The notes under the pieces were generated by a model that was not told the origin of the DNA, did no database searches, and saw nothing but the letters and a program-made list of their open reading frames with translations. Position numbers and translations under genes: made by a program. This document shows positions 24,206 to 40,260 of a DNA stretch of 64,000 bases, in pieces. Source of the stretch: Candidatus Heimdallarchaeota archaeon (GTDB lineage Archaea; Asgardarchaeota; Heimdallarchaeia; JABLTI01); assembly GCA_030614005.1 (NCBI GenBank), contig JAUWKS010000003.1:1354-65353 (forward strand), written 5' to 3'. How positions within the stretch are numbered: the first letter of the stretch is position 1; every line of letters begins with the position of its first letter.

Positions 24206-26887
24206 TTAATCTTCAGGGGGTATTGAATCCTCTTCAGCTTGCGAAGTTTCTTCTAAAGCTTTTTGTGCTTTAGCTATATTATCTTCTTTATTATCTTCTT
24301 CCTTAGAAAATTCCATTTCACGTTCAACTAAAACATCTAGAATTTTAAGTGAAAGCGTTTGGCAATGATCAATAATTCGTTCTGCTTCTAAAGTATCAAC
24401 ATAGAGTTGTTCCTCAGAGCCTTTGATTAATGGAAGAATAATTGAATTCCAAATCCCTTTGGCTTCTGTGAAGAGTATTTGCGCATCAGTAGCAAATTCA
24501 GTTAATCCTTCTCGAGATGCTGTATCTAAGGTATGAGGAGTCATTTTTTTGTTTAATAAATCCTCTAATTCTTTTTCATACCCTAATAAAATAGTGATAG
24601 TCTTTTTCATTTCTTCTTTCTTTTGATCAATGACTGAAGGAGCTACTTCTTCTCTCTTCTTTGGAAGGTCAATTGTTAGCTCTTGAACTGGTTCCTCTGG
24701 TACCTCCGTTGGAATATCTGCTGCAAGCTCTGTTTCAGAAATAACCAATGTATCAGCATCCTCTTGACTTGATCTCATTGTCTCGTCAAATCGTTTCTTT
24801 GCTGCTACTTCGATATTATCTCGTTCAGTTTTCTCCCAGGACATTTTGCGACCTTTAGCCTCTTCACCAGCAAACAATTCTGATTCTTGTCGTTCTAATT
24901 CTTTTTTATGTGAAGACTTCTTAGGTCTGAACTGTCTAGCAACTAGAAATGAGAACGTTAAGAATAATGCAATTGTTGCTACGCAGATTATTACTATGAA
25001 CATAATTTGAGCGTAATCAATGGGTTCAGCGACGCTTGGGGGGAAAGACTCTGGATCTAAAGGATCAGTACCATAATTTACTTCAATACCATCATTAAAA
25101 CCATCCCCGTCGGTATCTGGATTTGTAGGGTCGGTCCAAATACGTGATTCAAAATCAGTTGTGAGACCATCCCCGTCTAGATCTAAATCAACGTTATCAG
25201 CAACAAGTGGATTTAACCCAAACTTAACTTCATACCCATCAGAGAGAGTGTCTCCATCCGAATCAAAATTAAGTGGATCAGTTTGATAATCATTAACTTC
25301 TTCTCCATCTAATAGAAAGTCACCATCTGTATCTGCTAGATGAGGATCCGTTCCTTCTTGATATTCTTCAAGATTTGTTAACCCATCTTCATCAGCATCA
25401 ACAGAAGCATCTGTGCTATTTGTTGGATTAAGATTTTCTAAGATTTCATAATCATCAGGCATACCATCGGAGTCTGTATCACTTAGCAGTGGATTTGTTC
25501 CGTAGATTAAAATTTCATTTCCATCTGAGATGGTATCTCCGTCTGTATCACTTAGTAGTGGATTAGTTCCATAAATTGCTTCATCTAAATCAGAAAGTCC
25601 GTCTCCGTCCGTATCGATGGAACCATAGACAATATATGCTTCTGTTGTAAGTTGGTATCGTTCTACATAGGCAATGTAATAACTACCAAACTTATCAATT
25701 GTGATTGATGGATCATGAGCGATACTAGAGGATGAGCTTATTCTTTTTTCTAAACCCCAATTATTAGCAGCATTTTTCTGTTTAAGATAGACTAGTGAAT
25801 CTCCGGAAATATCTGATTCAAATACAACAATACTATTACCTTTTTGATCTACAGCAATTCCGAAATCACTATCATCAACTGCATAGGAATGAATGGATGT
25901 TGGTGAAGACCAAGCACCTGCTGCAGCTTTTGCTTGAGCAGTAATGTAATAGATATTGTTGGTTGTTCCATTATCTCTGAAAATAACTTCGATATTTTTA
26001 CTATAATTGTTAAAGGCAATTACGGGGTCAATAGGCGAGTAAGCGACATTAGTGATTTTCTCTTCAGACGTCCAAACTGATCCGTTCTCTGAGTAGCAAT
26101 AATATAATTCTTGCTCACTTGCTCTGCTATCTGACCAGATTAAATGAAGCGTATCGTTGTTATCAACCGTTAAACCGAGCTGTGTTCCAGCAGCAATTTC
26201 TGCTCCGTTAGTAATTCGGATAATTGGTGTATCCCAAAGACCTGTTGTAGCATTATATTTTGTATAATAAAGATCTCCTAGAGCATTATCAGTTGTGTCT
26301 CTCCATACTAAATGTACCAAACCAACACTATCAGTTATTGTCATTGGATTTTCAGCATCACCACTGTTTGCTGTTAGACTAGTTTTTGCTCCAATAGTAA
26401 AATCATCTTCAACAATTCTTTCTTGCAACTCAAAATCATCCAGAGGAGCTTCATCCTCCTCAAACACAAAATGAATGGATCCGTTAAAATCTGGAGTAGG
26501 ATTGTAGCCACTTGGTAGTGCAGCTAACACAGTATCAATTACTAATGGATCTGACCAAGAACTGCTACTATTACCAATAGAGAAATAGATAGTACTTACT
26601 GGGCTTGTATCTGGATTGATAATATCGATCCATGAAACTCCTACCATTCCTGTTAAAGGACTATAGCTTACTCGAGAATGAGATGAATTTGTTCCTGTAT
26701 TAGAAATTCTTTCACCATCAGTAACAATGACTGCATTTGGATTGTATGTGACTGCTAATGGTTCTTCAAAATCTAAAGGACTAACTCCAATAGTATTTGG
26801 TGATTCATCAAACCCCTGAATAGCAATTGGTAGTACTAAACAAATAAACAAAACAAAAATAAAGGTAAGATAAGTTAACCTTTTCAT
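24206..26887 (-). CDS. Type-I membrane surface protein with an Asp-box-like beta-propeller, TSP3 calcium-binding repeats, one TM helix and a cytoplasmic helical tail of about 270 aa
   Basis: ATG at 26887 gives the signal peptide MKRLTYLTFIFVLFICLVLPIAIQG. Repeated ...LHLIW.D / ...W[ST]... blades, e.g. YYCYSENGSVWTSEE. Many DTDGDGLSD / DSDGDTLSDGYE (DxDxDGxxDxxE) repeats. TM IMFIVIICVATIALFLTFSFLV followed by RQFRPKK and a long charged tail. Confidence 0.6.
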   Translation of the reverse strand: MKRLTYLTFIFVLFICLVLPIAIQGFDESPNTIGVSPLDFEEPLAVTYNPNAVIVTDGERISNTGTNSSHSRVSYSPLTGMVGVSWIDIINPDTSPVSTIYFSIGNSSSSWSDPLVIDTVLAALPSGYNPTPDFNGSIHFVFEEDEAPLDDFELQERIVEDDFTIGAKTSLTANSGDAENPMTITDSVGLVHLVWRDTTDNALGDLYYTKYNATTGLWDTPIIRITNGAEIAAGTQLGLTVDNNDTLHLIWSDSRASEQELYYCYSENGSVWTSEEKITNVAYSPIDPVIAFNNYSKNIEVIFRDNGTTNNIYYITAQAKAAAGAWSSPTSIHSYAVDDSDFGIAVDQKGNSIVVFESDISGDSLVYLKQKNAANNWGLEKRISSSSSIAHDPSITIDKFGSYYIAYVERYQLTTEAYIVYGSIDTDGDGLSDLDEAIYGTNPLLSDTDGDTISDGNEILIYGTNPLLSDTDSDGMPDDYEILENLNPTNSTDASVDADEDGLTNLEEYQEGTDPHLADTDGDFLLDGEEVNDYQTDPLNFDSDGDTLSDGYEVKFGLNPLVADNVDLDLDGDGLTTDFESRIWTDPTNPDTDGDGFNDGIEVNYGTDPLDPESFPPSVAEPIDYAQIMFIVIICVATIALFLTFSFLVARQFRPKKSSHKKELERQESELFAGEEAKGRKMSWEKTERDNIEVAAKKRFDETMRSSQEDADTLVISETELAADIPTEVPEEPVQELTIDLPKKREEVAPSVIDQKKEEMKKTITILLGYEKELEDLLNKKMTPHTLDTASREGLTEFATDAQILFTEAKGIWNSIILPLIKGSEEQLYVDTLEAERIIDHCQTLSLKILDVLVEREMEFSKEEDNKEDNIAKAQKALEETSQAEEDSIPPED

Positions 26888-27153
26888 TCCAGCTAAAGTA
26901 ATTTTTGATGACACTTTTCAGACTTCCTACTCAGTTTAGTATTTAGACTATGGGAAAAAAAAGCTTTTTATAGTGAACATTAGAGGTAAAATGATAAGAT
27001 ATCAGTTTAGTAGCTAATTGATAGTGCAAAGCTATTTTCATTCCTAGTTAATTTAAAGAACGGAGTATAGGAAAACTTCTTAAAACAATTTCAAGGGTTG
27101 GAGAAATAGTTAATAAACACTTTGTTGTGCAAATAGAAAATAAGGTGCAAATA

Positions 27154-31934: not shown

Positions 31935-32895
31935 ATGTTACTTTGTTTTATAATTCCTCTATTTAGTTAAAATAGTATAACACCTCAACCAATGGTACAA
32001 AACGTTATCGGTGCATCATTGGAGTTAGAACAAAAGTGGAACTATACGACAAGTGGAATATCTGTAAGTGCAACACCAACACTGTTCGATTTATACGAAG
32101 ATGGAACAATGGACGTAATTTATGGAACTAATAAAGATGTGACTTGTCTTGATGACCAAGGAAATCTCAATTGGTCATATTACACTAATAGTGTAGTTAG
32201 GGGATCACTTGTTGTAGTTGACGTAGATAATGACTATAAACCAAACATTGTCGTTGGTGTTAGTGATAGTTTGCGATTTTTTGATTATGATGGTTCATAT
32301 ATGAGAAATACTGGAACTGGCTATATTATGGATGCCCCATCTATTGTTGATTTTGAAGGTGATGGAGAATGGGAATTCTTAGTACCAAGCTATCTATTCT
32401 ATGATGGTATTTACTGTATTAATAGTAATGGATCCATAAGATGGTCTTACACAGATATTTCATCACCTGGAACACCTGATAGAGTGTATGGTACTCCTAC
32501 TGCTTGTGATCTTAATGGAGATGGAGTAATTGAAGTTCTCTTTGGTTCATGGGATGGATATCTTTATTGTCTTAATGAAACTGGGCATTTCCAATGACAA
32601 TATTCTCGATGGAGAAGAAGTTATTGCTGGAGCAGATGGTTTTATTACCAATCCCAACAACGCGGATACCGATGGCGATGGTATCGATGATGACATAGAA
32701 ATTGGCAATGGCACCGATCCAACCGATTCTAGTGACCCACCCGTAGAGACTCCAACTCCTACCACCACTCCTACAAATACTACTCCTACAGGCGAAGGCT
32801 CATTCATTGGTGGTTTTGTTAGTTTAGGTATTGTTTTATCTACTGCCTTATTTATCATAGCTTCAGTAGAACGTCGAAAGAAATATTACAAATGA
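31935..32895 (+). pseudogene. Decayed paralog of the beta-propeller/TSP3 surface-protein family: in-frame stop near the N-terminus, +1 frameshift near 32580-32595, PGF-CTERM-like C-terminus
   Basis: ATG 31935 encodes hydrophobic MLLCFIIPLFS, then an in-frame TAA (31968-31970), then the ORF 31992..32597 (beta-propeller-like ...DGDGVIEVLFGSWDGYLYCLNETG). Frame 1 continues at 32530..32895 with TSP3 motifs (NADTDGDGIDDDIEIGNGTDPTD), a Thr/Pro linker, and GGF plus a hydrophobic helix plus ERRKK. Confidence 0.4.
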
Positions 32896-36996: not shown

Positions 36997-39900
36997 ATGC
37001 AATTGATGCACAAAAATAGGTACCCCCCGCAATTAGTATTAATTGGCAGTTTATTCATATTTTTAATGTTATTCAATTCAGCTGTAAATGCTATCGAAGT
37101 GGAAGTTGGCAGTGAGGTAGGAATGACAGCAATACCGCCACAAATGGGTGGGGACTCTTTTGAGACACAAGCAACGAAAATCAATGGTTATGATTGGGAA
37201 GATGAGGAGGTTTTTGAAACATTTGCTCCGCTAAATGATTTGAAAATAGCTCTTGATGGCGATGAAAACGTTCATGTGTTTTGGTCTGGTGTAGAAAATG
37301 GTGATTATTATCTATTCCATAAAATTAGATACAAAGTAAATGAAACTTGGAGTGAAAGAGAAAGTTTAGGTACAACCTCTTCTGAAACTGGTGCAGTATT
37401 AGATGTCCAGACAGATGATGCCGGTATAATCCATCTTACCTGGCAACAAAATTCAATAGTAAGATACAGACGTTACAATTATGGTATTTGGGAAAATCCA
37501 CAGGTTGTCAGTAGTGGTATACATCCAACTATTGATATTAGTACAACAAACGGTGCTCCAAATGTAATTTACAAAAGAAAAGTGGATAGTAGGTATATAG
37601 ATTATAATTATTATTTTACTGAATATAATACTTCTACTGAAATTTGGAATGCAGAACAAATCGCTATGGGTGACTATTCTCCAAATGGAGGGTCATCTTA
37701 TGCTTATTCACTTGTAAAAGATGGAGAATTTGACAAACCGTATATTTTTACAAGCTTTCTAGATAGCTATTGGTATTGGGATGATTCATCAGGTTATTGG
37801 GTTAGAAAAGTAGTTGATACAATCAACTATAAAATACTGAGTCGAGATAGCGAGACTTCAACTTTCTCTAATGATGGATTTGATATTGAAAGTGCAATAA
37901 GCGTTACTGTGCCAGTAGTAACAAAACCACTGCTAATCAATAGTCCATCTGATGGGTTATTTGCTTTTTATAATAAACCAAAAGATGATGGAACTTATGA
38001 GATTACCTATGCTAAAAAAGCTGGCTCTTACTGGAGCAATCCAATAACACTATCTGATAAAGCTGCTCTGAAGTGTGAAATGACCGCAGTAGTGGATCAA
38101 TTTGGAAAAATAACCCTTATTTGGAATTATGTACACCAAACAATGATAGAAGGACAACTAAGATCGTCCGCTGAATTATATATGAAAACATTTTCTCCAT
38201 ACACACAAACATGGTCAGATGATTTACCATTAAATACTATAGAAATGTATACTCACTTTCCATCAATGACTCAAGATACAGATGGTAATTTGTACTTGGT
38301 ATACATCGATATAAATATCACTGATTCATCAGAGAAGAAATTAATTTTTAGAAAAGGTTGGACAGATTCGGATGAAGATGGGTTAACAAATAATGTGGAA
38401 ACAGAGATACATGGAACTGACCCTTATGACCCCGATTGCGATGATGATCAAATGCTGGATGGAGAAGAAATAGCATTAGGTTTTGATCCTTTTAACCCCG
38501 ATGAAGATTCCGATGGAATGGCAGATGGGTATGAAGTGCACAATGATTTAGATCCTTATAGTGACGATTCCTTGGGTGATTATGACTCAGATAACTTGAC
38601 AAATATGGAAGAATTCTTAGCTGACACATTTGCTAATGATAACGATACTGACGATGACGAAGTGAGTGATTATAACGAGTTAAAGGTGTATTTCAGTAAC
38701 CCGAAAAACCCTGATTCAGACGAAGATGGATTAAGCGATGGAATAGAAATAAACATTGTTGGTTCTAATCCAAATTCTAATGATACTGACAATGATACTA
38801 TGTTAGATTATTATGAGTGGACTAATGAGTTGAATCTGACTCTAAATGATACTTTTGAAGATTTTGACGGAGATGGATTGTATAATATTTATGAATTCTT
38901 ATACAATATTAAGGCGAATAAAGCAGATACCGAGGGGGATGGTTTGGGTGATTATGAAGAAGTAATGATTTATTTCACTATACCAAATAAATTCGATACG
39001 GATGACGATGGACTTTGGGATGGTATTGAAGTATACACCTATGGGACAAACCCATTATTACCGGATACAGATAGTGACTTTTTGTTAGATAAAACAGAAA
39101 TTGATGCCGGTTTAAATCCCGTCGATAACGACACAGATAATGATTTAATGCTAGATGGTTATGAATATATTTTTGGTCTTGATTACTTTGATGATTCAGA
39201 TGCAAATTTGGATTATGATGGTGATACTCTTACAAATCTAGAAGAATCTTATTTATGGACAAATCCATTTGATGATGATTCTGATGGCGATAAAATAGTT
39301 GACAATTATGAGCTTGAATTAGGTAGTGATCCTGCAAAATATGATACCGACGACGACGGTTTAAACGATTATAATGAGATATTTGTAATTGGTTCTGATT
39401 TTGATAATAATGATACCGATAGCGATGGTTTGATAGATGGCGATGAAGTATTTATTTATCAATCAAATCCACTCATTGTTGATTCCGATGGTGACACTCT
39501 CGATGATGGTGATGAAGTATATATTTATCACACAAATCCTGCTTCTACAGACACCGATGGTGATCTTCTTGCTGATAATTTAGAGTTAGATAACAATTCA
39601 AATCCACTGGTCGTTGATACTGATTTAGATGGTATGGATGATTATTTTGAATGGCTCTATGGACTTGATCCCACAGAAGATGATTCACTAATTGATACCG
39701 ACCAAGATGGTGTGCCAAACTTCGAAGAGTATCTTCATAATACTAATCCTTTGGTTAATGATACAGATCTGGATGGCTTAACTGATTTCGATGAAATTTA
39801 TGTTTATTATACTGCTCCTGATTCCAACGATACCGATGAAGACTCTCTTGCAGACTACGATGAAATAATGGTTTATGGAACATCCCCTCATGATCCAGAC

Positions 39901-40260
39901 AGCGATGACGATGGCATTTTAGATGGAGAAGAAGTTAGGATTGGTACTGATCCCACAGAAATTGATTCTGATAAGGATGGTGTTTCCGATGGTCAAGAGC
40001 TTTTAGATGGAACAGATCCCACTGACTTCTATGACAACAAAGATATCAGACGCTCGCGCTTACTGATCGTCACCTTTTCTGTTATTGTTGGAGGCATTCT
40101 TGTGTATTATATTGGTCCCTTCCTTATCATAAAATTATCACGTAATGAAGAAACTAAATGGGTTCAAGAAGGACTTTTATGGCGAAAACGGAAAGGAACT
40201 GAAATCCTCGAAACGTCACCTCATTCTGAAGAAATTTCGGAATCGAATATGGAAGAATAA
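36997..40260 (+). CDS. Large type-I membrane surface protein with an Asp-box-like beta-propeller, about 25 TSP3 calcium-binding repeats, a C-terminal TM helix and a short cytoplasmic tail
   Basis: Signal peptide ([20 protein letters not shown]); W-containing blade motifs ([30 protein letters not shown]); TSP3 repeats from about residue 455 to 1010 ([36 protein letters not shown]...); [26 protein letters not shown]; tail of about 45 aa. Confidence 0.6.

Follow-up and report, generated by a model that had tools for sequence, protein, structure and literature searches.

A predicted surface protein of Heimdall-type Asgard archaea with a conserved stalk of 24 TSP3_bac repeats

Results and discussion

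Domain architecture and distribution

The open reading frame at 36997..40260 on the forward strand, within the 64-kb window analysed here, is a real gene with an ATG start that encodes a protein of 1087 aa. This protein is uncharacterised and most likely sits, membrane-anchored, on the cell surface of a Heimdall-type Asgard archaeon. Behind a signal peptide it has a seven-bladed beta-propeller at aa 60-456 and 24 TSP3_bac repeats at aa 457-1012, followed by one transmembrane (TM) helix and a tail of 42 aa. The repeat region is an old, tightly conserved structure of fixed length and not a fast-changing repeat array. We consider it probable that this region acts as a Ca2+-rigidified stalk, by which a glycan-binding head is displayed at the surface of the archaeal cell. 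The original prediction, which read the gene as a signal peptide, a propeller with Trp-ending blades, TSP3 repeats and a single TM segment, agrees with the N-terminal and one further hydrophobic segment, with the blade ends and with a TSP3_bac score of 44 bits; its figures of about 25 repeats, about 550 aa and a 45-aa tail came close to the actual 24 repeats, 556 aa and 42 aa.

The signal-peptide-like N-terminus (aa 1-32; 36997..37092) consists of basic HKNR, a hydrophobic core of 14 residues and AVNA. The Kyte-Doolittle profile places the hydrophobic segment at aa 11-34, and the structure model contains a helix at aa 11-30; the cleavage site is putative. Judging by ortholog N-termini, the close orthologs use the Met that corresponds to codon 4 (nt 37006) as their start. 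The following linker (aa 33-59; 37093..37173) is of low model confidence, with pLDDT below 50 for aa 25-59, and poorly conserved, at 8-44% identity among orthologs with less than 70% overall identity. The second and last hydrophobic segment covers aa 1019-1048. Global confidence of the full-length model is low (pTM 0.49).

Relatives of the protein are annotated as hypothetical in all sources, except for two automatic 'exo-alpha-sialidase' labels, and full-length copies were found only in Asgard-type assemblies. The taxonomic placement follows the names that these relatives carry. A profile search of genome contigs with the full family alignment returned mostly hits to TSP3 repeats alone, in unrelated archaea and bacteria, together with four full-length loci, while the same search with the head alone confirmed no relatives. 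Our search of the literature on Asgard archaea and thrombospondin or TSP3 turned up no account of these proteins, which form an undescribed family of a known kind. Scans of the window for tRNAs and Rfam families were empty.

Stalk composed of calcium-loop repeats

The 24 repeats (38365..40032) were delineated by Pfam TSP3_bac, a custom repeat HMM and alignment. Each of them combines a 12-residue DxDxDGxxDxxE loop with a helix of 6-7 residues, at a period of 22-27 aa. Pfam TSP3_bac (PF18884) matches six stretches of the protein with 44 bits against a cut-off of 25, and the custom HMM resolves all 24 units. Every loop fits the EF-hand ligand positions 1, 3, 5, 9 and 12; 105 of these 120 positions are invariant in 35 sequences that diverge down to 36% identity. 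The stalk is rich in Asp (23.7%) and contains 174 acidic versus 10 basic residues. Judging from the loop motif and the structural matches to COMP, thrombospondin and Bap, each loop most likely binds one Ca2+. Many of the N-x-S/T sequons in the stalk read N-D-T and overlap the repeat motif.

The stalk model is locally confident (pLDDT 91) and globally of low confidence (pTM 0.57), so that the array may form a rod or fold back on itself. Among solved structures, those closest to the model are the Ca2+-binding type 3 regions of COMP and thrombospondin and the B domain of Bap. The best Foldseek matches were to COMP and thrombospondins (3fby, 1yo8, 2rhp and 1ux6), with E-values from 1e-5 (3fby) to 3.5e-4 (1yo8) over about 264 columns at 18-22% identity; their TM-scores of 0.09-0.13 (probability 0.1-0.33) imply that the global paths differ. 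Pfam TSP_3 gave no match to the protein at E <= 0.1, and a profile search of the PDB with the stalk at E <= 10 yielded Bap, lanmodulin and an EF-hand protein without any thrombospondin. The type 3 repeats of eukaryotic thrombospondins are stapled by disulfides and wrap around a lectin-like domain at the C-terminus. The Asp-rich Ca2+-coordinating principle of this 'calcium wire' is the same, whereas the archaeal stalk has a short helix in each repeat and lacks the conserved Cys pairs, with one Cys (C481) in 556 aa.

Among prokaryotic proteins, the TSP3_bac proteins CglD (a gliding adhesin) and MtsD (cell-cell cohesion) of Myxococcus xanthus resemble the 36997 protein in being exported surface proteins that carry DxDxDG Ca2+-loop repeats in tandem. 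CglD carries 12 of these motifs along with a COMP-like region that HHpred matches to COMP, and the gliding that requires CglD is Ca2+-dependent (bioRxiv 10.1101/2023.10.19.562135). The NCBIfam models of CglD and MtsD score the archaeal stalk at 84 versus a cut-off of 400 bits and 72 versus 800 bits, respectively, and only the TSP3 parts align. CglD is a lipoprotein of the outer membrane that contains EGF-like disulfide modules and a VWA/integrin-beta-like domain. The 36997 protein, in contrast, is archaeal and TM-anchored, has 24 loops and a head formed by the propeller, and contains hardly any Cys.

Stability of the repeat array

It had been proposed that the repeats create internal tandem similarity at the DNA level and are therefore prone to recombination or expansion. 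Neither part of this proposal fits the gene. TRF (minimum score 30) found no arrays in it, and a repeat finder reported only DNA copies of 60-75% identity. Exact direct repeats are at most 14 nt long, as compared to a mean of 13.0 nt and a maximum of 19 nt for the longest repeat in codon-shuffled controls, and the pairwise nucleotide identity between the 24 units averages 0.49 and reaches 0.68 at most. The 34 full-length relatives, the most divergent of them at 36% identity, keep about 24 units; the HMM detected 22-26 units in them, a spread that partly reflects its detection limits. By alignment, the stalks of the relatives are 557-597 aa long, and exactly 557 aa in many of them. The repeats are positionally orthologous, since a unit is 0.50-0.66 identical to the unit at the same position in other species as compared to 0.34 for other units of the same protein. 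A long repeat array thus need not be unstable, and this one behaves as a fixed-length structural module, more strongly constrained than the head.

Paralogs and genomic context

Within the window, TSP3 repeats occur at three loci only, namely at 36997, 24206 and around 31992. The gene at 24206..26914 on the reverse strand encodes a distant paralog of 902 aa (B) with a homologous propeller, 8 TSP3 repeats (aa 434-621), a TM helix and a conserved cytoplasmic tail of about 240 aa. As originally predicted, the two proteins thus share one architecture and differ in tail length. BLASTP aligned them in collinear HSPs with E-values of 5e-5 and 4e-4. The propellers are only 20-26% identical, and comparison of the two ortholog families by hhalign related them with a probability of 99.2% (E 2.3e-19, 292 columns), which excludes that the repeats are their only common element. 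The repeat number of B is fixed at 8 across its family.

The third locus, 31992..32895 on the forward strand, which the original prediction listed as a pseudogene at 31935, is a truncated and frame-broken remnant of two ORFs (31992-32597 and 32530-32895) that does not belong to the family. It is a decayed protein of an FG-GAP propeller, TSP3, a Thr/Pro-rich linker and a TM segment. The first ORF contains a propeller fragment of the FG-GAP / Beta-prop_CGLA type according to Pfam and matches an FG-GAP+TSP3 protein at E 1e-13; it shows no similarity to the 36997 head (best E 0.17). The TSP3 repeat and the TM anchor alone are common to the remnant and the 36997 protein, and none of the three syntenic loci (L001-L003) has a counterpart of it. 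Therefore, of the three family members claimed within 16 kb, only 36997 and 24206 can be retained.

Both paralogs keep their positions in the housekeeping block of these loci, where the orthologs are 74%, 50% and 46% identical. The conserved block includes B, L11, ADP-forming acyl-CoA synthetase, D-aminoacyl-tRNA deacylase, OTCase, A (36997), FtsY, prefoldin, L18Ae and eIF6. Kept positions at this level of ortholog identity, together with the 20-26% identical propellers, indicate that the 36997/24206 duplication is ancient. BLAST and the co-occurrence of A1 and A2 in single genomes assign the proteins P0029-P0036 to a second, anciently diverged subfamily (A2). The separate standing of A2 strengthens the conclusion of a fixed array. 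As candidate orthologs of 36997, P0029-P0036 were ruled out on the same grounds.

These data bear on a view that builds on the original prediction, of an adhesin family that evolves fast, has expanded locally and recently, and owes recombination and length variation to its intragenic repeats. It is consistent with the presence of three TSP3 loci within 16 kb, one of them decayed, and with the resemblance of stalk plus head to fibrillar adhesins. The likeness to the bacterial fibrillar adhesins of Monzon et al. 2022 (PMC9210967) consists in a distal binding domain on a repeat stalk with a cell anchor, and that study flagged among them an N-terminal domain cluster overlapping BNR_4 with a function listed as ambiguous. 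In contrast to those proteins, the 36997 protein is archaeal, is anchored by a TM helix in place of a sortase or outer-membrane anchor and carries a conserved cytoplasmic motif, and its stalk is fixed in repeat number, more conserved than the head and not rapidly evolving. With both real paralogs syntenic across orthologs of 46-74% identity, repeat counts fixed at about 24 (A) and 8 (B), no DNA repeat identity in 36997 and an unrelated propeller at the third locus, a recent local expansion is hardly credible. Far from encoding a variable adhesin, 36997 is a core gene, inherited vertically and syntenic, and each genome has at least two other members of the family. The label adhesin as such is plausible.

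Propeller head

The lectin-like head (37174..38364) was defined by its Trp-ending blades and by the structure model. The blade-end Trp residues are W118, W165, W217, W346 and W406, in a degenerate xxxW[SE] context, and an insertion that is absent from B adds about 90 aa to blade 4. Head identity among orthologs is low (18-38%, with 49-65% for the stalks of the same orthologs), which is compatible with several functions. The invariant residues of the head (D87, H93, H146, Y157, W165 and G174) are restricted to blades 1 and 2, and the propeller alignment of the family has no invariant Arg. The conserved H93, H108, H146 and Y157 lie within the repeated blade motif; the equivalent positions of the invariant His/Tyr in blades 1 and 2 suggest a structural role.

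The closest structural relatives of the head model are bacterial sugar-binding lectins of the PLL family, followed by BNR_4-type propeller lyases and hydrolases. A single-sequence search of the PDB with the protein gave no match. Assignment as a lectin follows from the fold, at 14% identity, and is accordingly provisional. The PLL-family lectins (Photorhabdus PLL/PHL, BP39L and CV39L) match the fold at 10-15% identity; they are soluble, about 350 aa long and devoid of both stalk and anchor, whereas the 36997 head carries the extra 90 aa in blade 4. The NCBIfam beta_propeller_lectin model gave no hit for A and 23 bits for B against a cut-off of 200. For BNR_4 (PF15892), A and B score 19.9 and 26.9 bits, respectively, both below the gathering threshold of 27.3 bits.

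The second group of matches raises the alternative of a surface-tethered carbohydrate-active enzyme, either a BNR_4-type lyase or hydrolase (PL24/PL25 ulvan lyases, PL42 Rha-GlcA lyase, GH145) or a sialidase, which the stalk would hold outside the cell to harvest sugars. The BNR_4 enzymes, including PL42 FoRham1, do share the seven-bladed beta-propeller with the head. In these enzymes, a catalytic His base/acid, a neighbouring His, a Tyr and an Arg neutraliser lie at the anterior pocket (PMC8377490). The 36997 head lacks an invariant Arg that could serve as neutraliser in the PL24/25/42 manner or as part of the Arg triad of sialidases, and its invariant His/Tyr appear structural as noted above. 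GH33 sialidases are moreover six-bladed with SxDxGxTW Asp-boxes, whereas the head model is seven-bladed with degenerate blade ends and only 7-10% identical to sialidases in Foldseek. Since the best structural matches are lectins, the orthologous heads are so divergent, and no sugar-utilisation genes adjoin 36997 as in a polysaccharide-utilisation context, we regard an enzymatic role as unlikely.

Membrane anchor and cytoplasmic tail

The single TM helix (aa 1022-1045, 24 residues; 40060..40131), supported by hydrophobicity, the model and the alignment, carries an invariant YY..P signature that includes the family-invariant Y1037 and P1041. The 42-aa tail (40132..40257) was defined by alignment of 35 tails. 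It contains a conserved juxtamembrane motif, EExKW[VI]x[EQ]G[IL]xW[RK]xxK (aa 1051-1066; nt 40147-40194), within a region that is helical in the model (helix 1050-1072). Among 375 proteins this motif was found solely in family members of about 1050-1140 aa. The tail of B has a conserved juxtamembrane motif of its own, ARQFRPK..KRKELE.

If the protein were an integrin-like outside-in receptor, its TM helix would pass on ligand binding at the propeller to the cytoplasmic helix and, in the paralog, to the 240-aa cytoplasmic domain. The invariant TM signature, the family-restricted conservation of the juxtamembrane motif among orthologs of 37-50% identity and the long tail of B with its own motif point in this direction. 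On the other hand, no signalling domain can be recognised in the 42-aa tail, a juxtamembrane helix that is basic and rich in Trp could equally serve topology or membrane anchoring, and no partner genes are co-located with 36997. We consider such signalling very unlikely.

Proposed function at the cell surface

In the favoured reading as a calcium-rigidified stalk with a lectin-like head, the 36997 product would be a single-pass type I protein (N-out, C-in), the ectodomain of which is exported through the Sec-type signal peptide. The seven-bladed propeller would form the far end of the ectodomain, held away from the membrane by the 24 EF-hand-like DxDxDGxxDxxE loops, and the polyanionic stalk would be ordered and of fixed length only with calcium bound. 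The TM helix with its YY..P signature would anchor the protein, and the short, conserved, basic Trp-containing helix on the cytoplasmic face may bind the membrane or a partner. The Ca2+-dependent gliding that requires CglD is an experimental parallel to this reading, and the many surface densities anchored in the membrane of Asgard cells (PMC9834061) would provide its cellular setting.

Many copies of such a protein might instead form a Ca2+-bridged canopy or an S-layer-like coat, in which the stalks set the envelope thickness and the propellers make up the outer face. A scaffold of this kind would fit a syntenic core gene with several paralogs per genome, the extreme acidity of the stalk, its fixed length as a spacer requirement and the enrichment of N-x-S/T sequons (11 versus 5.5 expected, p ~0.017), although metal-loop constraints may explain the many N-D-T sequons. 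Asgard envelopes have abundant surface densities, many of them membrane-anchored (PMC9834061), and an S-layer is present in Hodarchaeales; the S-layer protein reported there (KTGHC1_P6247 family) is described as a homotetramer that forms pores and carries N-glycosylation close to the N-terminus. We consider the scaffold rather unlikely. A more far-reaching version, decidedly a long shot, would make the A1, A2 and B paralogs a principal structural element of the Heimdall-group envelope, with the 24 loops as a ruler for a lectin-tipped, Ca2+-dependent coat that the cytoplasmic helix couples to the membrane or cytoskeleton. If true, it would provide a prokaryotic forerunner or analogue of matrix/integrin-type adhesion in the closest relatives of eukaryotes.

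The practical value of these assignments is modest. We found no solved structure of a long TSP3_bac array, and the 36997 stalk offers a natural one for structural study. The family is also a candidate for assigning densities in Asgard cryo-tomograms.

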